The notes beneath the pieces were generated by a model that did no database searches, was not told the DNA's origin, and saw only the letters and a list, made by a program, of their open reading frames with translations. A DNA stretch of 64,000 nt from a phage: NCBI GenBank assembly GCA_024682255.1, contig GCA_024682255.1_4716.1, one strand, 5' to 3'. A program made the translations under genes and the position numbers. Below are positions 2,699-58,628 of the stretch, one piece after another. Each line of letters begins with the position of its first letter. Position 1 is the first letter of the stretch.

Positions 2699-5218
2699 TT
2701 AAATAATCGTGACGTGTTCGTTATATGTTTCAGGGAGAATGATGTTCGTTTTATCAAGAACCATACACTCGGCTTTACGGAATGACGCATGGTTGATTAC
2801 ATAGTGGCTGATGAACCACACTTGGCTTACACGGTGACCATCAACCAGACGACGAACAAAATCCATGGCATTAGATTGGTGCTGAGGATCAAATGTTGAT
2901 GCAAATTCATCTAACATCAACGGATAATCCGTGAACCCTTTGTAGTGCATCATCGCGATGATGAACGCGATGTTGATAATTTCCTTTTGTCCCTTACTCC
3001 CACAAACAATATCTTTTCGCGGTGTCGGATACTTCTCAGTTAAAAGCGGAAAACGATAGTTCAATCCTTGCGCGTCGATAGCACACGGAAGTATCTGAAG
3101 TTGGTATTCCCAAATACTCGCAATGATACCGTTCATGTACTCAACGAACGCGTTGATGGGACCCGCAATTGTTTCGGCAATCAGTCCGTTAGATGGACTT
3201 AACTCATCCAGAACAAGTTGTGCATAACCGAGTTGTTCTTCCACCTCTTTTTGTGTCGTTTCCAGCTGAGCCAGAAGCTGTTGGTCGGTTTTAGCTTCTT
3301 GTAGTTGCTGTTCGACATGACTTATTCGACGAACCGTATCAGACATCGCAGCACGTAACGATTTCGTGTAGAGGTGTTGCAGATACTCTAACCACAGTTG
3401 GGTTAACGCTTTATCGCTGTTATCAGAACGCACTTGATCTTCCATAATCGCCGTAATGGTTTCCAATCTACCTTCCGTAGCTGTAATGGCTTGTGTTAAC
3501 CGCTCAACGGTTGTTAACAACTCTGTCCTGTTCTTATAAAGCAATTCCCGACGTTGCTGTAACGGTTCAACATCAACTGCTTGTACACGTTCGAGCATGC
3601 CTTGAAGATGCTTCCGTTCTTGCTCGGCTTGTGTGTAACGCGCAAGTTTCTCGAACGCAAGCAACCAATCGTTAATGATTCCAATACTGCGGAATCCTAA
3701 ACCGTTTTTACGTCCTTCTTCCAGCAGATTATCCCACATGGGTTTAATGGCGTAATAATCCTTCGTCCAACGCGTTAACTGACGATGCTGTTCCATCCAG
3801 AGCGTATAGCGCTGAACCTTCTCGCTAAGCTCAGCTAACGATTTTTCTTGCTCTTCAACCCAAGCACGGCCCTTCTGAATACGCTGTTCAATACCCGCTT
3901 TGCTGGTCTTTTCTGTTTCACCAACATGAAAGCGATAGTTGCATTTTGGACAGCTGGTCTGGGGTTGATGGTTAAGGTGGTCGAGATGCGCTTCCAAATC
4001 GGCTAACGCATGTTTCGCGTTACGCAAACGCATTCTTGCCGCCTCTTCCTCCTTGATGTAAGCTTCAGCATCGTAGACGTGATAGGTGTTGTCGGTATCA
4101 ATCCATTCTTGGAGTAATTCCGTTAATGGAGCCTGAACTTGCGTGAGCTGCTGTAAACAAACCGCAGCGTCCAGATTCATCGTTAAAAGCTCACCTGGAT
4201 GATCATGCTGGAGTTGTTCGTCCAAACGTGCAAGGCGGGCTTTAATCTGATCGATATCACCTTCTCCAGACTGTTTCAACTGGTCAAGGATATTATCGAT
4301 GCCCAACAGCTCGTCAACCTGACTTTCGAGTTTCGCGTTCGCATTCGCGAGTTGTTCTCTTAGTTCTGCCAGATTCTGCTGTTCTTGTTGCGATGTTCCT
4401 CCTTGGTAACGAACAACCGCACGAAGAAGCTCGCGATTAAAATGATGGGCACGTTGTGCGGATTCCAGAAGCTGTCGTTGATCAACATCGCTGTCAAATA
4501 ACGGCAATCCCATCATCGCTTCGAGCGCTGAGCGTTGCTGTTTTAACTCTGCTTCCAATCCCTGGTGGTCGGTGCCCGTGTATTTCGCTTCAATGCGTTG
4601 TGATGTTTCAACCAACTTATTCAGTGTATGTTCGTTCACCGCTTTCAGTGAACGTACTTGTTGCTTAACAACCTGAAACAACTCGAGCGCGTAATCGACG
4701 TTAACCGGACATATCTGCGTTAATCGTTCACGACGTTTCATCGGCCCCATTTCGGTGAACTGGTAAGCTGTTTCGTAACCTAACAACAAACGAATGGTAT
4801 CGTCATTAAGTTCGAAATGTTCTTCAATCAGTTTCCATTGGGCCGGTTGTGTGCCACCACCGTTCAGGTTCTCGCTGTCGTTAACGTAGAACTCATGCTT
4901 AAACCCTTTTTCTAAACGACTGATAAGACGGTATTGTTTATTACGGTGTTCACAGCGGTACTCGTAATACCCGTCTTTATCAAAATCGGCACGCTCAGGA
5001 ACGGTCGGATACAGCAAAGGCAATAGACTACTCTTACCGGAACCATTACTGCCTAAAATGAGTTGTACGGGATTATCTGGCCGGATGACCAGCTCCCGAA
5101 TCATCCCGGTATCAAAACGATTGAATCCACGTAAGTGGAGATAGGTGCATCGCATGCTATGATAATCCTTCTTCGATACCTTCTGAACCACGGGTTCAGA
5201 ATGCGAAGCTGAAGACAT
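2699..5218 (-). CDS. Rad50/SbcC-like SMC-family ATPase (recombination/repair)
   Basis: N-terminal Walker A LILGSNGSGKSS; long central region rich in E/Q/L/R heptad-like sequence (coiled coil); central CPKCNYRF (CxxC zinc-hook-like); C-terminal Walker B/D-loop PLMLDEFASTFD and VWFISH. Confidence 0.7.
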   Translation of the reverse strand: MSSASHSEPVVQKVSKKDYHSMRCTYLHLRGFNRFDTGMIRELVIRPDNPVQLILGSNGSGKSSLLPLLYPTVPERADFDKDGYYEYRCEHRNKQYRLISRLEKGFKHEFYVNDSENLNGGGTQPAQWKLIEEHFELNDDTIRLLLGYETAYQFTEMGPMKRRERLTQICPVNVDYALELFQVVKQQVRSLKAVNEHTLNKLVETSQRIEAKYTGTDHQGLEAELKQQRSALEAMMGLPLFDSDVDQRQLLESAQRAHHFNRELLRAVVRYQGGTSQQEQQNLAELREQLANANAKLESQVDELLGIDNILDQLKQSGEGDIDQIKARLARLDEQLQHDHPGELLTMNLDAAVCLQQLTQVQAPLTELLQEWIDTDNTYHVYDAEAYIKEEEAARMRLRNAKHALADLEAHLDHLNHQPQTSCPKCNYRFHVGETEKTSKAGIEQRIQKGRAWVEEQEKSLAELSEKVQRYTLWMEQHRQLTRWTKDYYAIKPMWDNLLEEGRKNGLGFRSIGIINDWLLAFEKLARYTQAEQERKHLQGMLERVQAVDVEPLQQRRELLYKNRTELLTTVERLTQAITATEGRLETITAIMEDQVRSDNSDKALTQLWLEYLQHLYTKSLRAAMSDTVRRISHVEQQLQEAKTDQQLLAQLETTQKEVEEQLGYAQLVLDELSPSNGLIAETIAGPINAFVEYMNGIIASIWEYQLQILPCAIDAQGLNYRFPLLTEKYPTPRKDIVCGSKGQKEIINIAFIIAMMHYKGFTDYPLMLDEFASTFDPQHQSNAMDFVRRLVDGHRVSQVWFISHYVINHASFRKAECMVLDKTNIILPETYNEHVTII

Positions 5219-6924: not shown

Positions 6925-7287
6925 TTAAAGCGTTCTGAAGAGTTCTGTAGCGTTCTCGTCACGTAAACAGGCTTCGTTCAACAATTCAGCTAACAGCTTC
7001 GACCGAACTTCAACAAATGTCCTGAGGCGATGCTCCCATTCTAAACGGATAGTGTAAGTATTATCCAGGTTTTTGTAGTCAACGACAGATACCGAGCAGC
7101 GGGGTTCACGTTTGTTCACAGCATCCCAAACATCACGGATAACCGTCACGCCTTTCTTGGTACACGTAAACGTTAAAATAAAGCGATTATTCGCTGCTTC
7201 TTCACGGACATGACTAAATTCACTTCGTAACGATGAGACTTTGATAAGTCGGTCAATAGCTAACGATAAACCGATACGTTGTTGCAT
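6925..7287 (-). CDS. hypothetical protein
   Basis: 120-aa ORF with AGAGGGGA RBS; abuts the next gene. Confidence 0.5.
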   Translation of the reverse strand: MQQRIGLSLAIDRLIKVSSLRSEFSHVREEAANNRFILTFTCTKKGVTVIRDVWDAVNKREPRCSVSVVDYKNLDNTYTIRLEWEHRLRTFVEVRSKLLAELLNEACLRDENATELFRTL

Positions 7288-7288
7288 A

Positions 7289-7714
7289 TCAAATCCCCTC
7301 TTTCAGAATCTCATTAAGACCGTCAGTAATCCAGTCGAACTTCGTCTTAATCATGGCTGGGTTCAATCCATATACTTCCCACACAAGCTGGGGTTTATGT
7401 GTTCCATCGTCCAAACAAAGCACATCGATTGAGAGTACCATACCACCCGTCAATTTCATGTTCTCGCAACTACGAAGATATGCGGATTCTAGCAATACTT
7501 TCCCTAACGCAGTGCAAGCAAATGTTAACCGGGAAGAGTACAGGTACGATGACGTTTTACAGTAGGTTGCTGATATCGGTTGAATATGTTTGCGGAGTTT
7601 GGCGTCTTCACGTAAAAGCAATAACGTGTGATGTAACCGCGTATGCTCGGTAACCGATGAGCTATACTCACCGATACACTCTTCGGCGACTGATTTAGGC
7701 CATTTAATTTTCAT
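7289..7714 (-). CDS. hypothetical protein (paralog of 7730..8173)
   Basis: 141-aa ORF, GAGGA RBS; N-terminus MKIKWPKS and HHTLLLL resemble MEIKFCKS and QHTLERL of the neighbouring ORF. Confidence 0.5.
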   Translation of the reverse strand: MKIKWPKSVAEECIGEYSSSVTEHTRLHHTLLLLREDAKLRKHIQPISATYCKTSSYLYSSRLTFACTALGKVLLESAYLRSCENMKLTGGMVLSIDVLCLDDGTHKPQLVWEVYGLNPAMIKTKFDWITDGLNEILKEGI

Positions 7715-7729
7715 GTTCGATTCCTCGTA

Positions 7730-8173
7730 TTAACACTGTGTTCCATTCGATAAGCGGGTGGTATCAAAACGATCCAGTTGGTGTACAATGCTATCAGCAA
7801 CACGATGCAAATAGTGTATTTTGTCCATTCGTGAAATCGCAGAAATCGTCCAGCAAGCCTCTGACGTCCAATAGGTGCCGTCTTCACTAAGGCTAACGTT
7901 ATAAACTAACTTCGTCATCACATTTCTCGCCTTATGCTCAGCAGACCAGAATATGTTTTCTAACACATCCTTCCCCGTTTGTGAAAACACGAACCCAAGC
8001 TTCACGTCGAAGTCGGATGCTTCAAGATTAACGCAGTGAAGATGATTCTCTAACGGCGCAAAAGAGGCTAAACGTTCCAGCGTATGTTGCAGTGTGGGAT
8101 GATCGAGCTTTTCGAGATCATCCACAGGTCGTTCAGGTACAATCGCGATCGATTTACAGAATTTAATTTCCAT
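7730..8173 (-). CDS. hypothetical protein (paralog of 7289..7714)
   Basis: 147-aa ORF, AGAGGA RBS; shared N-terminal signature with 7289..7714. Confidence 0.5.
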   Translation of the reverse strand: MEIKFCKSIAIVPERPVDDLEKLDHPTLQHTLERLASFAPLENHLHCVNLEASDFDVKLGFVFSQTGKDVLENIFWSAEHKARNVMTKLVYNVSLSEDGTYWTSEACWTISAISRMDKIHYLHRVADSIVHQLDRFDTTRLSNGTQC

Positions 8174-8285
8174 GGTAGGTTCCTCTTGATAGTGGTTGAT
8201 GATAGTAACGGGGACGGCGATGTCCCCTTGGTTTCTTATTGCCCCGCCCGAACCCGATGGGGTACAGGCGGGTGATGTTGATGCG

Positions 8286-8693
8286 TTATAGCGGCATCAG
8301 ACGTTCTTTAAGTTGGGTTAACTTATTCGCAACGATGGTCTCAACATCGATCATCTTGTTCATGTTGTCGAGGGTATCCTGCCAGATGAAAATATCCACG
8401 GAACCGGTTCCGACTAACGCGTTCTCAGGACGATGGTCGCGGGTCACGTAGCGTGGTCTCTGCGGGCAGGTTTGTAACTCGATCCAAAGCGCATCTAACG
8501 GACCGTGGTCCGTGACACCTAAGGCGAAGAATTCACCTCTTACGACCAGAACATCATCAGCCGTCCTGACACGGGTTGATCCTTCGTACACCAATTCCAT
8601 CTTTGCTCGGCAGGCCGGGTTCCCGTTCCACGCCTGGACGGCATCGGCAAGGGCTATTGACGTTGCGGTGGTGTTCGTTTGATCATGTTGCAT
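8286..8693 (-). CDS. hypothetical protein
   Basis: 135-aa ORF with GAGGAG RBS. Confidence 0.5.
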   Translation of the reverse strand: MQHDQTNTTATSIALADAVQAWNGNPACRAKMELVYEGSTRVRTADDVLVVRGEFFALGVTDHGPLDALWIELQTCPQRPRYVTRDHRPENALVGTGSVDIFIWQDTLDNMNKMIDVETIVANKLTQLKERLMPL

Positions 8694-8771
8694 TCTAAGC
8701 TCCTCAATCGTTCTACAACGAACTTTTAATGGAAGGGAATATGTTTCCCTTCTTTGGATTCGTTTATTGCG

Positions 8772-9047
8772 TTATACGGCTTTTCTGTGCGCGTAGAACG
8801 CCTTCGTTCCGTTGTTGATTGCTTCAACCACATCCCGGGTTAACACAACGGCGTTATCGCTTCGAGACGACGGTGCGTAATACCCTTCACCGTTCTCGGT
8901 AATCAGGCGATAACGGACTAAGCCTATGCTCGGTTCAACACGTAGCACCTTTTCAAGTTTGTATTTGATGATCTTCGTCAGGCTGACTGTGTCTGACGCG
9001 TAGATTGCTTTATAAACCTTGTTCTTTGTTGTCGGTTTCATCAACAT
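8772..9047 (-). CDS. hypothetical small protein
   Basis: 91-aa ORF in operon context; weak RBS. Confidence 0.4.
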   Translation of the reverse strand: MLMKPTTKNKVYKAIYASDTVSLTKIIKYKLEKVLRVEPSIGLVRYRLITENGEGYYAPSSRSDNAVVLTRDVVEAINNGTKAFYAHRKAV

Positions 9048-9087
9048 GATTTCTGTTGTATTTTCCTTTTCGCTTGTTGGTGTTGGA

Positions 9088-9387
9088 TTAAGGTTTAGGT
9101 TCCGTTTTGTGTTGTGCGAGTAGTATGTTGATCTGCTCCCGTTGTTCTTTTAAGCATGCGGGAAGCTGGTCTTCCCGTACCGTTCCGATTTCCAACGTGA
9201 TGTACCAGCGTTGTTCGGAAGCCTGCCATTGAAAACTGCTCTGTAAACGAAGGATGCTAGGATCACGTACCTTGTTTGCGCTGTAGCGGTTGAACCAAAC
9301 CAGGTAAGCGGCTTTTCCTTCCTCGTCGGCAACGTAACGCTGCACGCTGTTCTTGCCTTTGTTCTCGTATCCTGTTGTACGTATCAT
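9088..9387 (-). CDS. hypothetical protein
   Basis: Start re-assigned to the ATG (MIRTTGYENKG...) that overlaps the upstream TGA as ATGA; ORF track started earlier at 9441 inside the upstream gene. Confidence 0.45.
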   Translation of the reverse strand: MIRTTGYENKGKNSVQRYVADEEGKAAYLVWFNRYSANKVRDPSILRLQSSFQWQASEQRWYITLEIGTVREDQLPACLKEQREQINILLAQHKTEPKP

Positions 9388-10166
9388 GCGAACGTTTCTC
9401 CTGCAGCGTGTTGCGGATGGCGTAGCATGGTAGCATCCCATTGTACGAACCGGCTCCGGCTTACCCGCATCATGATGGATTCATCGTCAAGCCCTGGTTG
9501 CACAACCGGTAACCAACGTTCGTTAAGCACCTTCGCTTCAACGCGTTTCTTGCGTGGGTTGTAACGCACCCCGCTAACCCAAGCGAATCCAAGTGGATGC
9601 ACAACCCGTGGATAATACATGCGAAGCAATTGATGCATCCGATCCGTTGCCTCCAAGCTCGCATCCGCCATGTAAGGTTTCACCATGGTAAGCTTTTTGG
9701 TATAATACGTACCAACGGTATGGTTACGCCAACTTGGCAAGGCATGATCCCCTTCTCTCAGTTTGCTATCCGGGTTCATCGGCCAGACCTGCTGTTTACC
9801 GGCCAGCATCGCGTACTGCCGATCAACGCAACGAACCTGATCGGCGAACAATGGATCCAGGATATCATCCACCGCACCCTTATTGCGATAACCGTGATGT
9901 ACCACCAACCTGCTTGCGCTCATCCGTTGCGGATGCTGGCTCTTATGCGCATACAGTCCTCCGTCACCGCGAGCGTCGTAAAGATAACCGCATGCGCCAC
10001 GCCATATCACCTTGCCTACGGTTCTCTCGTCTTCAAGCAGCATCGTCGGTCCATCAAGCAAATTGGTGAACCATTGCACCTTCACGCATTCCGCTTGAAC
10101 GCACTCAGGTAATGCCTGATACTCTTTTTGGGTGTATAAGGTATCAAAAATGATTTCATCGTTCAT
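9384..10166 (-). CDS. hypothetical protein, first gene of a minus-strand operon
   Basis: 260-aa ORF with AGAGGA RBS; lies immediately downstream of the 0.9 kb non-coding region. Confidence 0.55.
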   Translation of the reverse strand: MNDEIIFDTLYTQKEYQALPECVQAECVKVQWFTNLLDGPTMLLEDERTVGKVIWRGACGYLYDARGDGGLYAHKSQHPQRMSASRLVVHHGYRNKGAVDDILDPLFADQVRCVDRQYAMLAGKQQVWPMNPDSKLREGDHALPSWRNHTVGTYYTKKLTMVKPYMADASLEATDRMHQLLRMYYPRVVHPLGFAWVSGVRYNPRKKRVEAKVLNERWLPVVQPGLDDESIMMRVSRSRFVQWDATMLRHPQHAAGETFA

Positions 10167-11093
10167 CTAAAAAGTTCCTCTGTTTCACGTTAATTAAACA
10201 ACGTATTGATTTCTGGTAACGATAACAATCCTAGTGATGTTATCAAAAAGGTAACGCTTACGCGTCGCGTTCATGATGCCATGCATCATGAAGGTAATAT
10301 AGCCGTGAAAGGATTTGTGTTACAGAAAGGGTTTTGTTGTTTTTAAGAAGAGATGGATTTAGAAGAGGTGTTGCAAGCAAGGAAGGTAAACGAGGATAGG
10401 TATTTTGATTTAAGTAAGTAAGATGTTATCTGTATTCGTTAAAAATGTATTGTCTAAGTTATCTTGTTTATCTTAGGTTATGTCTTATTGTTTAATCGTT
10501 TAATATTTTTATCTAAGTAGGTTTAACTCTATCTTGTTTGTATATTTAAATTAATTTAAAGTAGATCAATAAGCTTATCTTCAAAACAATGGATAACATG
10601 TGTTTACTACCTTAACGGTAACACATGTCATCTGTGCATTCACTCCGTTATCACTTCGTTACATGCTTATCAACGTTTTGTCTTCACAAAACGTTCAACT
10701 CAAAAAACCATTTGTGATACTCTTCTTCACGTTGTTCATCAGAGTATCTCGTCTATACTCATTGCATTCGTATACGACATAACCGTTATACGCTAACGCT
10801 ACGCTTATAGCTTGATAACTCTAAGGATAAAAACATAAACTCGCTTCGCTCGTTTAGTTTTTCTTTTTCTTAGAGTTATCCTGTTGCTCGTCTCTAAAGG
10901 ACTTCGCTCCTCCCCCGTCCCCCGAAGGGGCCGAGGTCGTGGAAATTTTACTTTCCAAATACATTTACAACATCTGTAAACTTTTACTCCAGGTACTTAA
11001 TCTTATCATTAGAAATTATAAAAGAGAAGAATAAACACAAACATAAACCTTCCTCCAACCCAACAGGGAAGGAGGAAGGGGGATTAATTAAAA
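10167..11093. other. long AT-rich non-coding region with reiterated TTATCT-type motifs and inverted repeats (regulatory hub, origin or ncRNA candidate)
   Basis: No ORF with RBS support in ~0.9 kb; repeated TTATCTTGTTT / TTATCTAAG motifs around 10.42-10.56 kb; 12-bp inverted repeat GATAACTCTAAG...CTTAGAGTTATC around 10.81-10.88 kb. Confidence 0.5.
11048..11079 (-). terminator. conserved hairpin element, AACCC-N4-GGGAA core (copy), downstream of 11094..11993
   Basis: CCTTCCTCCAACCCAACAGGGAAGGAGGAAGG; on minus strand followed by TTTATGTTTGTGTTTATT; identical 32-mer recurs at ~58629. Confidence 0.55.
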
Positions 11094-11993
11094 TTATACG
11101 GGAGCGTTAACGTTATAACCGAATACTGCTTTACCGTAGGTGTGAGTACCGTCAGCTAACGACAGCACCAGCACATTGCCGTACGTAGCGTTAACGCCCT
11201 TGTCGGTAGACTCGAGGGTATCACCGTTATAGACAAAGGTAGCTGTTTGCAGATTGGCTTTCAGTTCATTGATGATCTCATCACTTACACCGGTCTGCTC
11301 TTTGATCAGGGTGGTCAGGTTACCTGCCAGGCTTTCATCGATCTTGGTTTCGTTACTGGTAATCGCCTGTAAACCTACGCCGTAGATGCTGAAGTCTAAC
11401 GGATAGGTTAACAGACGCGCTGACGTTTTGGTACCATCGCCTTCATCAACGTAGGTTAAGTTACCCAGGTTGGTAACCTTGATGATGTTAGCCAGATCCA
11501 GCGTGGTGTTATAAACTTTAACTTGAACCGAGCCATACCACGCCAACGAATCTTCTTTGGCTTCCAGGGTGATCGTCTGGATACCATGCTGGTCGAAGGT
11601 AACCGGCGTAGCTAACGTTTCGGCTTTGATGTCTTTCGCTTTATCCAGGAACTTCTCACCGGAAGGCGTGATCATACCGTAGCGTTGAGCTACAAGGTCA
11701 ACCACGTCACCAATAGTGGTGTTCGCATTAACGTTAACACGTACAGCGATTTTCTGGAACCACTTAGCCAGATCCAGACGATGGTAGGTAACATCGCGTT
11801 CATTGAAGTAAGGGGTACCTTCACCTGGGCTAAGCGTTAAAGTTGCTTCTGGAGCAGAAGGATTCTTTTCTTTAAGAACGTATTTAAGGTCGGTGTATTT
11901 GAAGCTGGCACCAGTGTCGGCGTTGAGTTTGTTAATCTCATCAACGATAAGTTGCCAAGGTGTTTTTAAAGTAAGCGATACTTGAGCTGTCAT
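11094..11993 (-). CDS. putative virion structural protein, member of YYDR...LAWxGSV paralog family
   Basis: 299-aa ORF with AGAGG RBS; motifs TYHRLDL, AQRYGM, SLAWYGSVQV shared with 12135..12677, 23050..23955, 24872..25723, 25734..26681; monocistronic with hairpin terminator. Confidence 0.6.
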   Translation of the reverse strand: MTAQVSLTLKTPWQLIVDEINKLNADTGASFKYTDLKYVLKEKNPSAPEATLTLSPGEGTPYFNERDVTYHRLDLAKWFQKIAVRVNVNANTTIGDVVDLVAQRYGMITPSGEKFLDKAKDIKAETLATPVTFDQHGIQTITLEAKEDSLAWYGSVQVKVYNTTLDLANIIKVTNLGNLTYVDEGDGTKTSARLLTYPLDFSIYGVGLQAITSNETKIDESLAGNLTTLIKEQTGVSDEIINELKANLQTATFVYNGDTLESTDKGVNATYGNVLVLSLADGTHTYGKAVFGYNVNAPV

Positions 11994-12134
11994 TTTCTAC
12001 CTCTATGGTTGTTACATCACTCTCAAAAGATGTAAGTGTTTACAGAAATTAATATATTTTATATTAGTGTGAATAGTATGGAGAACGACTCCGAATCTCC
12101 TTTTCGACCATCAAAAATCAGAGGACACATAATC

Positions 12135-12677
12135 ATGGACTTAAACTTTAACAAAGCAGCGAAATCCCTTCTGCTTGATCTTATCAACACCAAAGCAACC
12201 CGCACACTGTCTGAAGAAGAACTGCAGTTCGGTACTCCGGCGACATCTTCCGAACATGGAAAGAACACCGTTATTCAGCTGGACGCTGCGCCTGAAGCAG
12301 CTAACCTGCAGGGTAGTCAGCAGTTCTACTACGATCGTCTGGCTCTGTCCGAAGTTTTCGCTGAAGTAACCGGCGATGTTACTTTCGAACTGCCGCACGG
12401 CACTGACAGCATTAAGGCTTCTGAACTGGTAAGCAAGCTGGTCACCAAATTCGGCCTGGCTTCCCTGACCGGTGAAATCAAAGAAGAAACCTTCCAGCTG
12501 TCTGCAGGTACTGTTGGTCGGGTAACCCTGACTGCGATCGAGGGTGGCCTGGTATATACCGGCACTCTGCAGGTTGCACTGACCTACGCAGCTGCACCGA
12601 AAGACCAACTGGCAACCGTTCTGGCGAATAACGTAGCTGATGGCTTCGTGAAACCGACCGTTAGCGCTGTTGGCTAA
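12135..12677 (+). CDS. putative structural protein, short member of YYDR paralog family
   Basis: Start re-assigned to ATG (MDLNFNK...) with AGAGGA RBS; contains FYYDRLAL, VTKFGL, LVYTGTLQV. Confidence 0.5.
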   Translation: MDLNFNKAAKSLLLDLINTKATRTLSEEELQFGTPATSSEHGKNTVIQLDAAPEAANLQGSQQFYYDRLALSEVFAEVTGDVTFELPHGTDSIKASELVSKLVTKFGLASLTGEIKEETFQLSAGTVGRVTLTAIEGGLVYTGTLQVALTYAAAPKDQLATVLANNVADGFVKPTVSAVG

Positions 12678-12685
12678 TAAGCGTG

Positions 12686-12727
12686 TAGAGCAATAGTATG
12701 GGTTTTGTACAGCTCGGCTATTGCTCT
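12686..12727 (+). terminator. stem-loop just after stop of 12135..12677
   Basis: 10-bp inverted repeat AGAGCAATAG...CTATTGCTCT with ~21-nt loop, followed by TCTACAATTTGG. Confidence 0.4.
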
Positions 12728-12876
12728 TCTACAATTTGGTTGTAACAATCTGCGTGGTTGCACGCTTATCTTTCTCATTGAGCGCTTCGTATGAAGCGTG
12801 GTGTTGAAAGGGTTGTGGATCTCCTCAAGCGGCCAGGGACCCAGACCAACCCGAATAAACACGAACACCTGTTAAG

Positions 12877-12908
12877 CCCCTCCTCATCCGTTATTGGGTG
12901 GGGAGGGG
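12877..12908. terminator. C-rich/G-rich hairpin between convergent genes (variant of the conserved class)
   Basis: CCCCTCCTCATCCGTTATTGGGTGGGGAGGGG, followed by TCTTATACGTCTTTATACG. Confidence 0.45.
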
Positions 12909-12971
12909 TCTTATACGTCTTTATACGTTCCGTTCGTTCTGGAGCGTTTTAGGACGGTTTACGGCGGGGTT

Positions 12972-13733: not shown

Positions 13734-15782
13734 TTACATACCCTTGGTTCCTTTCACGTGATGTGCAATTTCTTCAACCATTGCACGCAGAGCACGAAGC
13801 TGTTGATCATGTTCGTACCAACCGCCTAACAGAACCCCACTATACACCATGGTGTCAAGACTTAACAGCCCTTTATCTGATACGTTGATCATTTCAGGGA
13901 ACTGTTCTTGAACACGCTGTGCAATAACACCGATCTTCTCGACATCAGGATCGTAGTTGTGACGGAAACGGGCAAGCCCGCTGCGCGCCATTTCACGTAA
14001 ACGTTCACTGAGAGATTCCGGATGGTCTTTCAGATAACGGATGTCGTGTTTACTACGCTCATCTGAACGGATGTATGCGTTAGGAACATCGATGTTGCTG
14101 TTGAAGTACAGCGCACTACCACCACCTGCAGAGTTCCCCCAATAGAAGCGTGTGATCTCACCGCCACCATTTTCCGTGATGATAACATGTTTACCTAAAC
14201 GTGTACCACCATTACCATCAACGAAGACCAGTTTGTTTCCGCTGTAAGAACCCCAGAACAAACGCGTATCGATGATGTGCGTTGCGGCGAGGCGGGCGTT
14301 ACGTGGTGTAGAATACACGGTGTTAACATCTTGCTGCGCATGCGCATCGGAAGCGATACCATAGTTCTGTACGTTACCCAACCCAACCTGCGCTTTCGTA
14401 ACAGCGTGAGGGTTGTCTCGACGGTTAGCGTGAGCGTTAACCAGATCACCCGCTAATTTCTGAATTGCCCAGTTGGTAGACTGTGGCGTCATGTAACGGT
14501 TAGTTGCAGAACCACCTTGCGCTTCAGCTTGGTTAGCGGTTGGGTAGTTCTCAACACTTCCTAACCCTACTTGTGCTTTAGACACTTGGTGCGGGTTATT
14601 CTTGTCGGCTTTATGCGCATTAAGCGGAACTAACGCAAAGGTCTCAATGGACGCTTTGGTTGTGTTCGGTGCCATTAATCGGTTAGCTGCAACACCGGCA
14701 CGCGCTTCTTCTTCAGAAGCCATCGGATAGTCTTGCACATTACCTAATCCCACCTGCGCCTTGGTCACTCTGTGTGGGTTGTTATAATCGGCTTTGTGCG
14801 CATTAAGTGGAATCAATGCGAATTGTTCAATCGCGGCAACGGTACGTAGCGGTGTCATGAAACGGTTGTTCGCTGTTCCGGCTTTCGCCTCATCATCCGA
14901 AGCGGTCGGGAAGTTATCAACGTTCCCAAGGTTAACCTGTGCTTTGGTGACGCTGTGTGGGTTATCCCGGCGGTTAGCGTGAGCATCGACTAGATCGCCC
15001 GCCAGTTTAGCAATTGCCCATCCAACCGTTTGTGCGGTCATGTATCGGTCAGGTGCGGTACCGGCTTCTGCCTCCGCCTTGTTTGCAGTAGGATAGTTCT
15101 GTACGTTACCTAGTCCGACTTGGGCTTTTGTTACTTCGTGCGGGTTATCGGTACGGTTAGCGTGTGCGTAATGCAGATCGGTCAGATCTTTATCCGCTGC
15201 TTGCATGTCTTTGCGTAGCTGATCGATTGCCGCCCAGAGACGGTTATCGGATGCAGCATCACCGATAAGTATTGCGGCTTTCAGTGAATAGATCGCTAAG
15301 CAAAGATGTTCGGTACCGTAAATAGCACTAACGTGGTGGATGTGTGGTTCAGGCGGATAAAGTTCCGGTTTGTTCTTGATGTCGTCCCAGTTGATCGGAC
15401 GATCGTCAAGTTTGAGTTCTTCGATAGCCTGATACAACGCGTCAATAAGACTTACGTAAACACCACCGATGATACGATAGTCGTTAACTAATGTCCCCTC
15501 GATATCATCGTTGATGATGGCGATGGCTGCACAGATTTCTTTACCTGCGTAAAGCGTCGCATCCTGATACAAGAAAATGGGTTTATAATCCACGCCTCGT
15601 ACCAGTGTCTTACCGGTAAGCTTTTCAGTGATGACCAGACTTTCGGTGAAGAACGGTCCGCCATCAAGGGCGTAACATTTATTCTCGGTTCGTGGAACGG
15701 TATGCTCTTCACCAACGATGTGGTTGCTGGCGAGTGTACCGGTCCAGTCCTCGGGGTACTTCAGGGTAATTGGTGTCGACAT
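13734..15782 (-). CDS. tail fiber protein with five ~60-aa repeats and C-terminal intramolecular chaperone (peptidase S74-like, self-cleaving) domain
   Basis: Five repeats of H-A-N-R-x-D-N-P-H-x-V-T-K-A-Q-V-G-L-G-N-V-x-N-Y; C-terminal YIRSDERSKHDIRYL...GVIAQRVQEQFPEMI matches the S-D-x-R-x-K-x-x-I chaperone-domain signature. Confidence 0.8.
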   Translation of the reverse strand: MSTPITLKYPEDWTGTLASNHIVGEEHTVPRTENKCYALDGGPFFTESLVITEKLTGKTLVRGVDYKPIFLYQDATLYAGKEICAAIAIINDDIEGTLVNDYRIIGGVYVSLIDALYQAIEELKLDDRPINWDDIKNKPELYPPEPHIHHVSAIYGTEHLCLAIYSLKAAILIGDAASDNRLWAAIDQLRKDMQAADKDLTDLHYAHANRTDNPHEVTKAQVGLGNVQNYPTANKAEAEAGTAPDRYMTAQTVGWAIAKLAGDLVDAHANRRDNPHSVTKAQVNLGNVDNFPTASDDEAKAGTANNRFMTPLRTVAAIEQFALIPLNAHKADYNNPHRVTKAQVGLGNVQDYPMASEEEARAGVAANRLMAPNTTKASIETFALVPLNAHKADKNNPHQVSKAQVGLGSVENYPTANQAEAQGGSATNRYMTPQSTNWAIQKLAGDLVNAHANRRDNPHAVTKAQVGLGNVQNYGIASDAHAQQDVNTVYSTPRNARLAATHIIDTRLFWGSYSGNKLVFVDGNGGTRLGKHVIITENGGGEITRFYWGNSAGGGSALYFNSNIDVPNAYIRSDERSKHDIRYLKDHPESLSERLREMARSGLARFRHNYDPDVEKIGVIAQRVQEQFPEMINVSDKGLLSLDTMVYSGVLLGGWYEHDQQLRALRAMVEEIAHHVKGTKGM

Positions 15783-15795
15783 AACCTGGAGGTCC

Positions 15796-18390
15796 TTATA
15801 ACGTGACTGTACCTAATTTGGTTGTCTTATTGAGATTAATGACAGAGATCTGGGTATCGCTGGTCGTAATCGTTCCGATATTAACGCGCTGTCCTTTATC
15901 ATCTTCTTGCTTGTAGATGGTTAACTCCAGTTCTAACTGGTCGCCATTAGGAACAACGGAAACGTACCATGTTTTATTACCTGGTGAGCTATTATAGTCT
16001 TTTAGGTTATAATGGCCTTTAGGTAAGGTCATGACCTTACCGGCAAACAAGCAAGTGATGTCTTCGTTGATGTAGATATCGTAACCGGAAGCAGCAACGA
16101 CCGTAGAAACCATGTAGACATGTTTGACGGTACCTGCGAGGTATTCGGCTACGCTTGGCCCATATGCTCTGAATACCTGTCCGCCATTGGATAAACGGTA
16201 CGCTTCCCCAAGGTCAACGTACCCCAGACCCCATACCGGATGGACGTTGTAACGACGTCCGCTGCTGGCCAAATACTCATAAAGCTCATCTACCGATAAC
16301 CCAACCCACGCACCACTGGCGTTCTTAGCACCACGGAATTGAAAATCGTTTGCGTTTCCTGGAGTAGCAACGCGCACGGACATCGCCCCGGCGATTAACC
16401 AGCCATCAGCGCATTTACGATACCCTAATGGTCCCCACGCCCCCAGAGTGTTATCAATGTTATTGATTTGGTCCCGAGGCGTGTAAGTTACCGTTGTGAC
16501 GACCCCCGTTACGGTAATGTTCCCTTCCCGAGCGCTAGTCGTTACTTCAGACGTCATGATAGCCGCCTTCCTGGAGACAGGATCGTACACCGATATGAAC
16601 ATCAAGCAGGGGGCCCCTGTGGACGCTGGAGGAACCACGATAGAGCCGCGTATAACGGAGTATCTCTCAAGCTTCGGCGACGTGTAGGTATCCCAACAAA
16701 GTTTGGCCGCTCTGTCGAGTTCTGCCTGCGTGATGCTTATCGATGCCCCCTTTAAGGCTAACGTATCAGGGTCGACCTCAACCCTGCTGCTTAATCTCCC
16801 TTCCTGTAACCAGCTACCAGTCACTATCGTCTGGTCGTCGCTCATGTGAATTGTCGCGAAACGTTCGCTCACTGAACCGCCTACGTGGACGCGACTGGTT
16901 GGCGGGAATCCCGTCACATCGACCACGCTGTTCTTATAGCGATAACTCAAATCCCAATCAGTGGTTATTAACCGCTTTTCGAAATTGCTCTGACCCCCTG
17001 GGATGCGGGATAAGACATAGACCTTGTTCTTCGCCGTGAAGCCAACGAAGCCGTGTGGACCACAGGACCCAACAACGCGGTCCATGATGTTAATCCAGTT
17101 CCCCACCTCGTACGCGGATATTGGGGTGAGTTTCGCAAGTTCGTCGAAGACATTACCAGCGTAGTCACCAATGCGATACGATCGAACCATCGGCGAGGCC
17201 AGGTTATCATTCACACAGCTGGTAACCAGACCGTCCTCGCGAATGACCATGTTCCCGGTAAGGTTGCCCCCACCCCATGCCCAGAATCCGTCTTTATAAT
17301 CACGGTCACGAGTTGACATCGTACAAGGGCCACGAAAGGACACCGAACCATCGGAGTTCACTTGTAATGACGGCGTTCCAGCATTGGGACTTAATGTCCA
17401 TTGCTTCGTATCCAGGTTCAAATCGACGTACCAGATCGTTGTCCCCTGGTCGGCGATATTCACGGTACTGTTAGTGTACCATGCCGTCGTGCAGTAGATT
17501 CGCGCAATGTTACCTCTTACAACAGCGTAATTTCGAACACCCGCACGAATAGGGATAAACGTCGTTAATTGACTAGGGTACGCTGTATGGTTTAACACTT
17601 CCCAGAAAAGAATGTGGTCGAGGTTGGTTTTCGTCGTTCCCTCAAAAATCTTTCCACTAAACCCGGTTTCTTTGGTGAACTGTACAGCCGCACCATTTTT
17701 AATGTCCGATAACATACAGGTATGTACATCGAGCCCGTGTTTCCCTTCATATTCCCACCAGACTAACAGGTACACTTTGTTTTTGTAGACGAACGTACTA
17801 CAGCGCGCCATGCTGTTGGTAATACCCTCTACCGACCCGGTACACATAGCGGCGACATGCATCTCTACGTTGAATGTGCCGTTAGTCAGAACGATGTAGG
17901 GCTGTGTGTTCTCGTCGTTTGCGTCCATCGCGATACCCATCATCACGCCGTGGTTATGACACCAGACCGATTGTGGGATTTTAGGTAGTGCTGTAGGGTT
18001 GTACTGGCGACTGGTACCTATGGCGGTATCGAGCAACCCTTCACCATTGTTTTTACAGATAGCGTAATACACCCCGTTTTTCATGCTGTTGGATGCAGAG
18101 CGAAGGATGGAAACACTCCCGTCTGCTTCCTGACAGATTCCGTAGGTACGACGTTCGGTCATGGCTATCGCGCCATCAGCTGACCCTTCGATGGCGAGAG
18201 GGAAGTAACTTTGATCGCCAATTTGTTCGATATCGGTTACGTCAATATCAATGTACTTTTCCATCTCGGTGTTGAACTCTGCAGTGCTGTACGCGCCGAG
18301 ATCGCCAGCCTTTAACCCTGTTGGATTGCTTCTGCTAGCGATGCGCTCGGTAACACTGGTCACCAGTTCGCTAAATTTTTTCATTGCCAT
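15796..18390 (-). CDS. large tail-associated structural protein (putative fiber, spike or baseplate component)
   Basis: 864-aa ORF between two tail fiber genes; G/S/T/N-rich composition; no catalytic motif recognised. Confidence 0.5.
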   Translation of the reverse strand: MAMKKFSELVTSVTERIASRSNPTGLKAGDLGAYSTAEFNTEMEKYIDIDVTDIEQIGDQSYFPLAIEGSADGAIAMTERRTYGICQEADGSVSILRSASNSMKNGVYYAICKNNGEGLLDTAIGTSRQYNPTALPKIPQSVWCHNHGVMMGIAMDANDENTQPYIVLTNGTFNVEMHVAAMCTGSVEGITNSMARCSTFVYKNKVYLLVWWEYEGKHGLDVHTCMLSDIKNGAAVQFTKETGFSGKIFEGTTKTNLDHILFWEVLNHTAYPSQLTTFIPIRAGVRNYAVVRGNIARIYCTTAWYTNSTVNIADQGTTIWYVDLNLDTKQWTLSPNAGTPSLQVNSDGSVSFRGPCTMSTRDRDYKDGFWAWGGGNLTGNMVIREDGLVTSCVNDNLASPMVRSYRIGDYAGNVFDELAKLTPISAYEVGNWINIMDRVVGSCGPHGFVGFTAKNKVYVLSRIPGGQSNFEKRLITTDWDLSYRYKNSVVDVTGFPPTSRVHVGGSVSERFATIHMSDDQTIVTGSWLQEGRLSSRVEVDPDTLALKGASISITQAELDRAAKLCWDTYTSPKLERYSVIRGSIVVPPASTGAPCLMFISVYDPVSRKAAIMTSEVTTSAREGNITVTGVVTTVTYTPRDQINNIDNTLGAWGPLGYRKCADGWLIAGAMSVRVATPGNANDFQFRGAKNASGAWVGLSVDELYEYLASSGRRYNVHPVWGLGYVDLGEAYRLSNGGQVFRAYGPSVAEYLAGTVKHVYMVSTVVAASGYDIYINEDITCLFAGKVMTLPKGHYNLKDYNSSPGNKTWYVSVVPNGDQLELELTIYKQEDDKGQRVNIGTITTSDTQISVINLNKTTKLGTVTL

Positions 18391-38364: not shown

Positions 38365-38572
38365 CGTCAACCTCCATCTGATTGAAAACTATCACGCATA
38401 ACGCATTTCCCTTTTCTTGTTCTTATCAATCCGACAGCCGACGGTTTCAGCATCGTTCCTAGCGCGAGAACGACCTTACGTGTTGTCTATGCCTTATTCA
38501 TCGCAGGCGTCTGTCACCTAGGTAATGTAAGCGTCAAATTTTTTCTATTCGCAACGATAAACGGCATAGAAA

Positions 38573-38602: not shown

Positions 38603-38701
38603 CTGACTTATGTATCACGGTGCCGGATGAATGTCCGGTGCAATGAAACCATCCGCAACGTTGTCGTCAAGAATATCATCCAACGAAGCAGCTACGGTAG
38701 T

Positions 38702-40924
38702 TCAGTTGGTCTGAACCGGCAGCTTGATGTTTTCAGTGTAGACCTTACGCAGGTTCACAACGTTAATCAGACCCAGCAGCGGGCAGTTGTTAACGAAGCG
38801 GCAGCGCGGCTGAACCATGGTTTCTTTAGAAACCTGACCGTTACGGGTAACCTGAGCAACAGATACCAGTTCCGGTACATACAGGAACATACCGAAGGTC
38901 AGCGGATCCGGAGAACCCTGGATACCACGAGACAGGGTCACGAAGATCTTATCGCGCAGCATGACGTTCGGGTTATCTACAACCACGAAGTTGAAGCTTA
39001 CACCAACGGTACGGAAATCACCATCGGTCTGCAGGAACTGCGGGATGTAGTTGTCAGTTGCTACTACGCAACGCGGTTTCTCATCAGCGTTGGAAGACAG
39101 CAGCTGCAGAGCTGGCTGATAACCAGACTCGGAGTACATGCGGTATGCCATTTCACGAATCACGTTCATGATCGCAGCAGACACTTCAGCACGACGTTCT
39201 GCAGTGGTGGTACCCTGAACAGATTTCTCCAGGTCCAGATTGATTTCTTCGAACCACGGACGGATCAGGTAACGACCGAAACCTTCGATCTGGATGTCGC
39301 CGAACTGACGGAAGCGAGAGGTCGCAACCGCTTTCAGTGCGTCTTTGTAGCTGAACAGTTTCTCAACCATCAGGTTGTCGAAACGTGCGTTAGCAGCTTG
39401 GATCAGAACGTCCAGGTCAGCAGCGTTTTCTTCCCAATCCAGCGGACGAGGAATGGAGAACGGAGCCAGCAGGCCGATTGCGTAACGTTCTTGCTTCATG
39501 TTGAAGTCAAGGTGCTTACCACGCTCACGACGGTTGCTGTTGTTACGGCGGATACGCAGTTCGTAACCAACCAGTTTGAAGCTCAGGTCTTCAGCCAGTT
39601 GTTTGAACTCTTCGCTCTTACGCGGTTGTTCGATGTTGTCCTGATCAACCAGGCGATACAGTTCAGCGTTAGCGCCGTTAACACGCAGACCGGCTTTCTC
39701 TACGTTGGAAGAACCGTAAACTTCGATTGCCAGCTGAGCAGCGGATTTCGCATCGATGATGTCCTGCAGCGCTTCGGCTTTCGCGCCTTTAACGTCAACG
39801 GTGTTCTCATCAACGAAGATGGAGTGGGTGTCGAACGCCAGGGTCATTTTGCGGAAGTCGCCTTCCAGGGATTTCTGGAAACCGTTGGTGATCAGACCAG
39901 ATACGTCGAACGGTACGTAAGAGGTTTTGCTGTGCTTGGTAGATTTGATTTCCACCAGGATTTTGGTCAGCGTGATCTGGGCGTCCAGTGCGTCGGTGTT
40001 GTCGCTGTAACCGTTAGCCAGGATGCTATCGTCTTCAGCAATACCGATCATGTCGATCAGTTTATCAACAGCCAGGTAAGACGTTTTATAAGTTACGCCT
40101 TTAATTTCGATGTCACGCGGAGCAACGATAGTTTTGTCAACGAAGTACTGTGCGTTAGCATCGTCAGCACGATAGATCGGATGCAGATCGGTCACGTCGT
40201 TGGACAGAACGTCGTTGTACATGAACGCATCCAGCAGCGGACGACGTACCCAATCAGCCGGAGTACCGTCAGCGTTACGACGCAGGTGGTTGAACACCAG
40301 CGGACGACGGAAAGATACGTCGTAACCGATCTGGTTCGGAGCCAGAACGATGGTGTTATACAGTTCGTTACCCATGCGGCTCAGACGAGAAGCCTTCACG
40401 TTGAACACAACGGAGTACGGCATCATGTCACGCAGTTCTTTCTGGTCGTAGGACAGCTGAACCAGTTCTTCAGATTCGCAACCGCAGGAATCAGCAGCCA
40501 TCATGACGAAGTTAGAGCTGTCAACTTCACGGCCAGACGGAGTGGTGCTGATGTTCATGGAACGTGCTTGTTTAGCATATTCCACCGGGTTACCATGAGC
40601 CAGCATGATCAGTGCTGCTGCACGAGCCTGCTGTGCGTTCATGGTGAACAGCTGTTCTTCAATACGCTGCTTCTCTTCCGGAGTGGTGGTTTCGAAGCCC
40701 AGCATGGACAGAACCGGTTCTTCGGCTTTACGGATGTCGCTGCTGAAGCTCTTAACATCCATTTCGTTAACCAGTTTGTCCATGGATTTGAAATCAACCT
40801 TAGAAGCAGATTCCATAGACAGGAAGGTGTTCTCCAGACCTTTGTCTGCTGGTTTGCTACCATTAGCGGTCAGGAACTGGCGAGTGGCCGCGACCTGTTG
40901 GCTAAGAAGGGTTTTATCATTCAT
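38702..40924 (-). CDS. putative major capsid protein (jumbo-phage type, ~740 aa)
   Basis: 740-aa ORF with conspicuous high-expression codon usage (CTG, CGT, CCG, GGT, AAC, TTC dominate) unlike neighbours; tandem hairpins downstream; size fits phiKZ-like major capsid proteins; no sequence search possible. Confidence 0.5.
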   Translation of the reverse strand: MNDKTLLSQQVAATRQFLTANGSKPADKGLENTFLSMESASKVDFKSMDKLVNEMDVKSFSSDIRKAEEPVLSMLGFETTTPEEKQRIEEQLFTMNAQQARAAALIMLAHGNPVEYAKQARSMNISTTPSGREVDSSNFVMMAADSCGCESEELVQLSYDQKELRDMMPYSVVFNVKASRLSRMGNELYNTIVLAPNQIGYDVSFRRPLVFNHLRRNADGTPADWVRRPLLDAFMYNDVLSNDVTDLHPIYRADDANAQYFVDKTIVAPRDIEIKGVTYKTSYLAVDKLIDMIGIAEDDSILANGYSDNTDALDAQITLTKILVEIKSTKHSKTSYVPFDVSGLITNGFQKSLEGDFRKMTLAFDTHSIFVDENTVDVKGAKAEALQDIIDAKSAAQLAIEVYGSSNVEKAGLRVNGANAELYRLVDQDNIEQPRKSEEFKQLAEDLSFKLVGYELRIRRNNSNRRERGKHLDFNMKQERYAIGLLAPFSIPRPLDWEENAADLDVLIQAANARFDNLMVEKLFSYKDALKAVATSRFRQFGDIQIEGFGRYLIRPWFEEINLDLEKSVQGTTTAERRAEVSAAIMNVIREMAYRMYSESGYQPALQLLSSNADEKPRCVVATDNYIPQFLQTDGDFRTVGVSFNFVVVDNPNVMLRDKIFVTLSRGIQGSPDPLTFGMFLYVPELVSVAQVTRNGQVSKETMVQPRCRFVNNCPLLGLINVVNLRKVYTENIKLPVQTN

Positions 40925-41073
40925 TGAAAGTATCCTTTACAGAATTAACTTATATAAGTCGGTCGATAGACCATAGCGTACACGCGTGCATGCGCCACTA
41001 TAGTATCAGTAAACACTTACCGTTATTGAGGTCGTGATACAACACTAAAAATGCCGCATAACTTTTCCCTACG

Positions 41074-46632: not shown

Positions 46633-46735
46633 TTTGTATCCTCGGTTGTTAAGAGAAATTTACAATGATAACAGTAACCGTTGTTATCACCTAGGTAATG
46701 TAGTCGCGAAATAAACTGGATTAGACAGCATAGAA

Positions 46736-58521: not shown

Positions 58522-58628
58522 TTGGGACTCCTACGTAGGAAAATCTTGGCGGGTGATCATGTCCGCCATTTACCTTCTGAACCGTTGATTCAGAAGTCAA
58601 AAGATAACCGGATACCAACGCCATAAAA

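Follow-up and report, generated by a model that had tools for sequence, protein, structure and literature searches.

A candidate structured non-coding RNA in a composite control region between late and early genes of a Goslar-like jumbo phage

The 64,000-nucleotide (nt) stretch of phage DNA analysed here (contig GCA_024682255.1_4716.1; hereafter, the window) comes from a close relative of Goslar, a jumbo phage of E. coli that forms a nucleus (Chimalliviridae), with about 95% nucleotide identity to Goslar across the aligned 88% of a 25-kilobase (kb) query. Two minus-strand genes of the window, the homologs of Goslar gp021 and gp022, flank a gap of 927 base pairs (bp; positions 10167-11093) with a G+C content of 0.347, compared to 0.472 for the window. 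An earlier note on this DNA had pointed to a large, AT-rich, gene-free gap at this position; the gap is real, and Goslar has the same one (14972-15825, 854 bp), which is unannotated and is the largest between annotated features of the Goslar record. The gap is a compound region for which the minus strand, that of both flanking genes, gives the clearest reading, and it is the border between a late unit (gp022) and an early operon (gp021-gp014), because gp014-gp021 are early and gp022 is late in published Goslar RNA sequencing (RNA-seq) data. Judging from sequence comparison and modelling, we propose, with moderate confidence, that the conserved core of the gap is a candidate for a new phage non-coding RNA and that the gap as a whole is a composite control region.

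For comparison, ten further Goslar-like loci were added to the window, namely, that of Goslar, two from IMG/VR contigs, and seven from contigs of metagenomes (individual loci are denoted L003, L017, and so on, where they have to be told apart). In the resulting 11-way alignment, from which the zones of the gap were defined, conserved and variable zones contrast sharply.

The conserved element and its predicted RNA

The inner core of the conserved block (10709-10990, 282 nt) is 100% identical in six of the ten additional genomes and 98.9-99.6% identical in three more. In those six genomes, the adjacent gp022 coding sequence differs by 2.4-9.3%, predicting 7-26 differences in the core; the probability of finding none, derived from the gp022 divergence, is between 1e-3 and 1e-12 per genome. 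In L021, where gp022 differs by 17%, the core shows 3 differences in 282 positions compared to the 47 expected. The element is, then, more tightly conserved than the adjacent virion protein gene. The block is the identity maximum of an 8.9-kb profile and sits where the late block (identity 0.85-0.97) meets a hypervariable early block (0.5-0.8). Its limits are a promoter-like box, here called the M-box, at the start and a U-run (10702-10707) at the end. The element is present in a single copy in the Goslar genome. Among phages, E. coli genomes, and plasmids, BLAST searches with the conserved core yielded no match outside Goslar, an exact-pattern scan of one genome per GTDB species gave 0 matches, and the same kind of scan of IMG/VR turned up no contigs other than the same three Goslar-like ones.

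On the minus strand, the element is predicted to form the helices H2 (10940-10957), H3 (10913-10936, capped by a C(UUCG)G loop), H4 (10897-10912), H5 (10814-10880), H6 (10753-10810), and H7 (10716-10748), followed by the U-run; predicted unpaired stretches include UAGAGACGAGCAACA and the H7 loop GAUGAACAACGUGAAGA. Some of this structure had been spotted before: the CCCCGAAGGGG hairpin is present at 10919-10929, and the 12-bp inverted repeat, which is contained in H5, has its arms at 10814-10825 and 10869-10880, 43 nt apart, although the span is 67 nt and not the roughly 55 nt given originally. For a 266-nt stretch of the minus strand, the minimum free energy is -80.9 kcal/mol (z = -5.4), with a centroid structure at -79, close to the minimum, whereas the plus strand reaches -64.9 kcal/mol with a centroid at -49.5. 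Consensus folding of the eight distinct sequences gives -78.3 for the minus strand versus -62.3 for the plus strand, so that the minus strand is more stable by 16 kcal/mol in the single-sequence and the consensus predictions alike.

In the consensus structure produced by alifold, 87 pairs are formed and 99.4% of cells are paired; two pairs show double compensatory changes, and five show one-sided changes of the GU type. In L019, H3 carries a C-G to U-A double change together with a U.G to C-G change. In H6, L021 and L022 have five changes, all of which preserve pairing through G.U, whereas the other strand would contain A.C mismatches; pairing can be kept in this manner only on the minus strand, which favours a minus-strand RNA. 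The C(UUCG)G loop also reads on the minus strand, as it does in Goslar terminators. Given the strand asymmetry and the few compensatory changes, the conserved element probably works as a minus-strand RNA. A separate observation concerns the tip of H3 in L019 (JACXXQ010002411.1, 3690-4340; window positions 10919-10930), which is exactly inverted, from CCCC-TTCG-GGGG to CCCC-CGAA-GGGG, a pattern characteristic of template-switch inversion in a palindrome.

The M-box, GTAAAAGTTTACAGA, has a 16-nt exact match in the region upstream of the chimallin gene of Goslar, and copies with at most two mismatches precede, by 82-90 nt, the start codons of the major capsid gene (gp041) and of gp023, which encodes the most abundant DUF7941 virion protein. 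Expression of these genes can be gauged from a supplementary table of Armbruster et al. (bioRxiv 10.1101/2023.09.20.558163), which compares control with chimallin (ChmA)-knockdown cells for annotated Goslar genes only. Knockdown cells stall at the early vesicle stage (bioRxiv 10.1101/2023.09.20.558163); therefore, only early genes are transcribed in them. The capsid and gp023 RNAs are nucleus-dependent in this table. The middle promoter motif of phiKZ consists of an A-rich repeat and TACT, centred 22 nt before the start (Wicke et al., PMC8244752), and phiKZ gp054, the chimallin gene, is reported to have an early and a middle promoter (PMC8244752). Upstream of the chimallin gene of Phikzvirus KEN19, an A-rich stretch with TACT is followed, after about 17 nt, by TATG and then by the early promoter; the order M-box, early promoter, gene is also found upstream of Goslar chimallin. 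The M-box is thus described here as a candidate middle/late promoter box. By analogy with these sites, transcription from it would start at G10956, the first base of H2, 19 nt after TACA.

Elsewhere in the window, M-box copies occur at 12032-12046 (plus strand), upstream of gp023, and at 41006-41020 (minus strand), upstream of the major capsid gene. Two Goslar copies on the plus strand, at 188961 and 176758, have no annotated gene downstream. The first lies in a 193-nt gap with a hairpin at the predicted start, and the second is antisense to gp243; these copies may mark further small or antisense RNAs.

Several points weigh against reading the element as an independently transcribed RNA. Covariation is thin, with only the 2 double changes, and 16 of 500 shuffles score as high as the real alignment; such similar sequences allow no stronger statement. 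In L019, H6 is remodelled. Between H7 and the U-run there are 8 nt, unlike in a canonical intrinsic terminator. The near-total invariance exceeds what RNA structure needs and fits a site acting at the DNA level as well. The M-box of the gap lacks the upstream CTCTCAA part that is common to the three sites in front of mRNAs, and the context of the predicted start is TTTG, not TATG. Finally, no Rfam family matches. The covariance-model search that the earlier note had proposed as a check found nothing credible: for 9000-12500, Rfam gave no match at E<=1, and the best matches at E<=10 scored 15-16 bits against cut-offs of 44-57. An ARAGORN scan of the window for tRNA and tmRNA found none. Built from sequences this similar, a covariance model of the element itself would act as a single-sequence model.

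Among the candidate functions listed in the note, a structured non-coding RNA is the best fit for the right half of the gap (10702-10990), but it does not extend to the rest. As for possible partners, 11-13-nt matches complementary to the predicted RNA occur in the Goslar genome at about chance level, the exception being the 16-nt M-box match. The A-rich run AAGAAAAAGAAAAAC and the 3' U-run would be compatible with Hfq binding, which is speculation.

A second conserved, structured non-coding stretch lies nearby, on the plus strand at 12678-12915, between the stop codon of the gp023 homolog and a hairpin at about 12878-12912. Within it, 12695-12844 has a mean identity of 0.99 in seven genomes, above that of the flanking genes, and the stretch folds with z = -6.6 and includes a 17-bp hairpin. 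The very abundant gp023 transcript may have here an element of its 3' untranslated region (3'UTR), or an RNA may be derived from that 3'UTR.

The remaining zones of the gap and its flanks

From right to left, that is, in the minus-strand direction, the region comprises the following features.

11094-11993, minus strand: gp022 homolog, a late gene for a DUF7941 virion protein; its stop codon is the right border of the gap
11030-11079, minus strand: terminator-type hairpin (11048-11079) with a U-rich tail, recognised from sequence and as part of a repeated family
10973-10987, minus strand: M-box, promoter-like, of the putative middle/late class; invariant in 11 of 11 genomes
10702-10956, minus strand: predicted structured non-coding RNA of about 255 nt, from conservation and fold
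10580-10701, minus strand: variable segment with optional hairpins at 10672-10695 and 10592-10632, from alignment and inverted repeats
10395-10601, no strand assigned: hypervariable AT-rich spacer with TTATCT (AGATAA on the minus strand) repeats; G+C content 0.23
10316-10394, minus strand: conserved stretch rich in pyrimidines, immediately upstream of the early promoter, from alignment
10286-10315, minus strand: early promoter of the phiKZ type, AATCCTTTCACGGCTATATTACCTTCATGA, from a position weight matrix (PWM) and the Goslar RNA-seq table
10216-10283, minus strand: variable hairpin insert in the 5'UTR (5' untranslated region), from alignment
10167-10215, minus strand: conserved gp021 5'UTR with the ribosome-binding site GAGGAA, from identity to Goslar
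9384-10166, minus strand: gp021 homolog, first gene of the early operon gp021-gp014, from homology to Goslar

The gp022 homolog matches Pfam DUF7941 (E=8e-51) and a PHROG family of virion structural proteins, and shares 89% amino acid (aa) identity with Goslar gp022, the RNA of which is down 16-40 fold in the ChmA knockdown (log2 fold change -4 to -5.4). Located 15 nt past its stop codon is the hairpin 11048-11079 (CCTTCCTCC...GGAGGAAGG), followed by the U-rich UUUAUGUUUGUG, so that 11030-11079 combines a G+C-rich hairpin with a U-rich tract right after a stop codon, the arrangement by which intrinsic terminators are recognised. The earlier note had called this right-edge hairpin a conserved copy; further copies occur in the window at 58626, 23007, and 43375, and each is found at the end of a gene; related hairpins are annotated as terminators in Goslar. 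The zone from 11079 to 11030 is moderately variable among the 11 genomes, and the hairpin of L019 shows a compensatory T-A to C-G change. A simple terminator scan did not list 11048-11079, and a weak match to the Rfam L10_leader covers only the terminator part of the hairpin region. By its sequence, the hairpin is predicted to be an ordinary intrinsic-type terminator of gp022.

At the opposite side of the gap, a 30-nt conserved motif (10315-10286) contains TTTCACGGCTATATTACC and scores 38.9 with a PWM built from eight Goslar sites and the window's own site. Within TTTCACGGCTATATTACC, the core of the motif is either TATATTAC or TACATTAC; TATATTAC occurs ten times in Goslar, eight of these in the same extended context. 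The PWM matches 12 sites in Goslar and three in the window (10315, 38543, and 46716), all on the minus strand. The TATATTAC core is present upstream of the chimallin gene in both Goslar and Phikzvirus KEN19, where the near-identical sequence is AAAAAAATTTGAGATTTATATTAC. Jumbo phages with two RNA polymerases have an AT-rich early motif of about 10 nt near position -10 that can be found bioinformatically (review PMC7598289).

In the ChmA knockdown, the first gene downstream of all 12 Goslar promoter sites shows a log2 fold change of +0.5 to +1.4, and gp014-gp021 show +0.8 to +1.4. The RNAs of genes upstream of such sites (gp022, gp076, and gp041) are down by 4-6 log2 units, and that of gp023 collapses likewise. 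The motif thus has the hallmarks of early promoters of the phiKZ type, that is, a recurring AT-rich core at sites ahead of operons that are transcribed before the nucleus forms, and the identification of 10286-10315 as the early promoter of the gp021-gp014 operon is well supported. Transcription would be expected to start at about 10286-10290; the description of the chmA start site in the preprint of Armbruster et al. is ambiguous and unusable for fixing the start site. The promoter shares with those of phiKZ-type Chimalliviridae the AT-rich core after a T-rich stretch, and, as in those phages, there are about a dozen copies per genome, ahead of operons of small hypothetical genes transcribed before the nucleus forms. 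It differs in context only: about 700 nt of non-coding DNA precede the window copy, whereas the other copies follow a terminator after a spacer of about 25 nt.

The other two copies in the window occupy 38514-38543 and 46687-46716, both on the minus strand. One Goslar copy (49717-49746) falls inside an annotated 62-aa open reading frame (ORF), gp047, which is probably not a gene because the early promoter is within its ORF.

The operon downstream of the gap is, as the earlier note said, a minus-strand operon of small genes (gp021-gp014), and these are orphans. The homologs of gp014-gp021 are a run of small, hypervariable genes; the gp021 homolog has no Pfam or PHROG family, and gp021 shows 44-62% aa identity among the relatives. 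Over the operon (7100-10166), mean identity is 0.5-0.8 compared to 0.85-0.97 in the late genes to its right. The first ~430 nt of gp021 cannot be aligned in most genomes, which indicates a mosaic breakpoint inside the gene. Between the promoter and gp021, 10167-10215 is 100% identical to Goslar across 47-48 nt. The insert at 10216-10283 is present, duplicated, or replaced, depending on the genome; hairpins in this part of the 5'UTR are a perfect 10-bp one at 10270-10292 and one at 10253-10266 that is followed by a U-run; a scan for terminator-like structures gave a match in this part. On the other side of the promoter, 10316-10394 is conserved in nine of the 11 genomes and divergent in L017 and L019.

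The central part of the gap is far less stable in evolution. The note's TTATCT motifs are present as five exact copies, all on the plus strand within 155 bp (10426-10580), plus variants. Their frequency there is well above the genome-wide rate, and under a local first-order Markov model some 6-mer reaches at least 5 copies in 6.6% of simulations; the repeats are real, with weak local significance (p~0.07). The TRF program detected no tandem array in the repeat zone. The number of AGATAA copies varies from 0 to 6 across the 11 genomes, with none in L019, and 114 to 435 nt of spacer separate the invariant block from the early promoter. The segment 10580-10701 is missing in L003, L017, and L019 and rich in indels in the others; its hairpin at 10592-10632, followed by UUGUUUUG, is a possible alternative 3' end. 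No AT-rich tract of the window is longer than 10395-10601, and the same holds for its counterpart in the 237-kb genome of Goslar.

Two other functions had been suggested for the gap. An early promoter cluster was half right: there is one strong early promoter, at 10286-10315, but no cluster, and this promoter lies outside the TTATCT zone, where the PWM finds nothing, so that the repeat zone is not an early promoter cluster. Nor did a sigma-70 scan, with 3 matches versus 3.6 expected, point to a cluster of host-type promoters; TTATCTTGTTT was rejected as a genome-wide promoter motif, given its chance-level occurrence outside the gap. Analysis of k-mer enrichment within the window alone revealed no promoter motif; the promoter motifs were recovered once the whole Goslar genome was used. 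An iteron origin, the second suggestion, is not supported in the form proposed. Such origins are recognised by at least three direct repeats of about 17-22 bp with regular spacing, by conservation of the repeats, and by an adjacent initiator gene, whereas TTATCT/AGATAA is a motif of 6-7 nt with irregular spacings of 9-46 nt that is not conserved, and the flanking genes encode a DUF7941 virion protein and orphans.

Other unusual tracts turned up in the course of these comparisons. In Goslar, a module in which (T)TTATGC[CT]GT directly follows a variable G+C-rich hairpin recurs across the genome (for example, at 3508-3540, 132960-132995, 180560-180595, and 202820-202860), with TATGCCGT enriched about 7-fold in intergenic DNA; in three cases, the module lies about 25 nt upstream of an early promoter. 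It may represent a terminator fused to a TATG-type start of the non-virion polymerase. In Goslar, the second-largest unannotated gap (82470-83288, 819 bp) follows an HNH/NUMOD1 gene by a DNA polymerase fragment and may be intron-related. A 766-aa ORF on the plus strand of the window (38627-40927) runs antisense across the major capsid gene (tblastn, 40924-38705, minus strand) and is probably an artefact of codon bias. The possibility that the gp035 and gp054 homologs are fragmented was discarded, tblastn showing both to be intact.

A model of the region and its alternatives

The anatomy of the gap, its conservation, the promoter motif families, and the early or late status of the flanking genes are matters of observation; transcription of the conserved element, its strand, its ends, and its independence we infer from sequence. 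Under the proposed model, the late gp022 transcript would end at the family-type terminator hairpin. A separate, single-copy non-coding RNA gene would follow, the M-box directing the non-virion RNA polymerase to a start at about G10956. The RNA, of some 255 nt, would begin with a 5' stem-loop, comprise six hairpins, and end at the U-run or, in some genomes, at the hairpin 10592-10632. The AT-rich, indel-prone spacer with its degenerate AGATAA motifs would divide this gene from the next unit, its sequence, motif count, and length being free to vary. Finally, the early promoter, read by the injected virion RNA polymerase, would drive gp021-gp014 through the 5'UTR with its variable hairpins. The limits of the block at a promoter-like box and a U-tract fit an independent RNA gene. 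Most likely, the product would be a stable RNA, protein-bound or regulatory, made at the nucleus stage, given that nearly every position, paired or unpaired, is constrained.

A rival account, which we consider unlikely, takes the region for a transcription-primed lytic origin, by analogy with known origins: the M-box would fire through the structured RNA into meltable DNA, where an R-loop would prime the leading strand. Its more specific form, in which the invariant ~255-nt RNA and the AT-rich tract together constitute the lytic origin of Goslar-like phages, with a primer or R-loop RNA made in the nucleus by the non-virion polymerase, is slightly less likely again. The AT-rich tract, which comes right after the promoter-like box and the conserved RNA, speaks for such an origin, its Goslar counterpart being not only the longest of its kind in that genome but also the least stable and most meltable 200-bp duplex, about 5.5 standard deviations from the mean. 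A conserved RNA beside freely varying AT-rich DNA is what the origin model predicts, and among the products of the phage are RNA polymerases of its own, an RNase H-like protein, and a DnaB-like helicase. However, the unwinding element that is evident in Goslar is not retained in L019, where the spacer shrinks to 114 nt (G+C content 0.35, no repeats), and the spacer is scrambled in L017. Furthermore, cumulative GC skew has no inflection at the gap, no initiator gene is adjacent, and a second tract of similarly low stability, at 185.8 kb in Goslar, is not accompanied by such an RNA. The latter tract (185746-185945), the second least stable 200-bp stretch, is in the 5' region of the early gene gp228, beside the degenerate early-promoter-like AGTATTACTT. 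In the literature searched, no paper links Goslar to small RNAs or to a mapped origin.

The conserved block might also act as double-stranded DNA, as a pac site for the initiation of packaging, a platform to which a phage protein binds, or an enhancer of the early promoter, with the hairpins being incidental inverted repeats. The invariance of loops and junctions as well as stems, and the position of this single-copy element upstream of the early promoter, are in line with such a role. Nevertheless, we regard it as improbable: the substitutions keep minus-strand pairs via G.U at positions that would be A.C mismatches on the other strand, and the block limits match the promoter-like box and the U-run. 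The distance of 114-435 nt to the early promoter is awkward for an enhancer, and the ends of the metagenome contigs do not coincide with the block.

Somewhat less probable still is a long cis-acting leader, whereby the M-box would be a second, middle/late promoter of the gp021 operon and the hairpins would regulate read-through, stability, or export. The order of M-box, early promoter, and gene at Goslar chimallin, and the reported presence of both promoter types at phiKZ gp054 (PMC8244752), provide a precedent for this arrangement. However, at 30 min, gp021-gp014 RNA in Goslar is not higher in normal than in vesicle-arrested cells, matching operons that have an early promoter only; the log2 fold change of gp021 equals that of other early genes, giving no hint that late transcription reads on from the M-box into the operon, which indirectly favours an independent RNA over a long leader. 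In addition, about 660 nt with a U-run and optional terminator-like hairpins separate the M-box from the early promoter.

That a small protein gene is the selected feature appears very improbable. The candidate, a 36-aa minus-strand ORF (10964-10854; MYLESKISTTSAPSGDGGGAKSFRDEQQDNSKKKKN), does have the same length in L019, the most divergent genome, even with 9 nucleotide changes there. But 4 of the 7 changed codons alter the residue, the changes are those that compensate within hairpins, and the ORF accounts for 111 of the ~282 invariant nt, with synonymous sites invariant in ten genomes. It has no Shine-Dalgarno sequence and no family match, as is the case for the small ORFs of the conserved part generally (the 36-aa and 31-aa ORFs have no PHROG family), and the conserved block of L019 carries two separate 1-nt deletions; for these reasons, the conserved block is non-coding. 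The same is true of the gap at large: the earlier note saw no ORF supported by a ribosome-binding site, and no ORF survives comparison among the relatives, a 60-aa plus-strand ORF (10600-10782) being broken in Goslar by 10- and 16-nt indels. We give equally little credence to the absence of any function, with one allele having recently swept by recombination through co-circulating Goslar-like phages at a mosaic junction: the element does lie exactly at a mosaic boundary, with the 5' half of gp021 unalignable among most genomes, but its identity holds across a divergence of 2.4-17% in the flanks to either side, the alleles that do diverge (L019, L021, and L022) differ mainly at loops or by pair-preserving changes, and the folding z-score is -5.4.

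Known systems and significance

Neither the terminator nor the early promoter is out of the ordinary, both belonging to known kinds, and a chimallivirus non-coding RNA would not be a new category, because small RNAs are known in 201phi2-1 and phiKZ: 201phi2-1 produces 11 small RNAs of unstated role, three of them intergenic, and small RNAs were also found in phiKZ (PMC8244752, PMC11512511). The M-box shares with the middle promoters of these two phages an A-rich stretch and TAC(T/A) about 22 nt ahead of the start (a predicted one, for the M-box), and it likewise precedes structural genes and chimallin. Going by their descriptions, the small RNAs of phiKZ and 201phi2-1 are set apart from the window element: they are shorter than 250 nt and are defined by reads, from dRNA-seq and ONT-cappable-seq, whereas the window element is defined from comparison of genomes, and identity across genomes differing by 2.4-9.3% in the neighbouring gene is not reported for them. 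What is new is a single-copy, clade-specific element of about 255 nt that is absent from Rfam and unannotated in the reference of a model phage.

Resemblances to replication origins are looser. In the primary origin of T7 and in ori(uvsY) and ori(34) of T4, a phage promoter is followed by an AT-rich unwinding element. Similarly, the promoter-like box of the window faces the part of the genome where AT content is highest and duplex stability lowest; in contrast to T7 and T4, where the AT-rich part lies within tens of bases, about 350 nt of conserved structured sequence intervene here, and the AT-rich part is dispensable in one relative, L019. RNA II of ColE1 is a multi-hairpin primer of several hundred nt, the folding of which matters and which is transcribed toward the replication start. 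The likeness to it is purely analogical, given that no RNA I-like antisense, G/C-rich hybrid segment, or RNase H site was identified. In T4-type phages, PeSL cassettes combine a conserved early promoter with a stem-loop in multi-copy units of about 50-60 bp at hyperplastic borders. Like them, the window element is a conserved non-coding sequence at a conserved/hypervariable junction and could guide recombination, but it is about 280 nt long and single-copy.

For annotation, the analysis yields a 12-site early promoter consensus for Goslar-like phages and a candidate middle/late box. Among nucleus-forming jumbo phages, Goslar serves as the E. coli model, and the locus is unannotated in its reference genome. 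If the element is part of an origin, it would offer a first handle on the start of replication inside the phage nucleus. RNA-targeting tools (dCas13d and antisense oligomers) already work in nucleus-forming phages, making direct testing feasible. If the proposed model is true, an RNA that is more conserved than a virion gene and that apparently shares its promoter-box class with the genes for capsid and chimallin would be a leading candidate for a new functional RNA of these phages.

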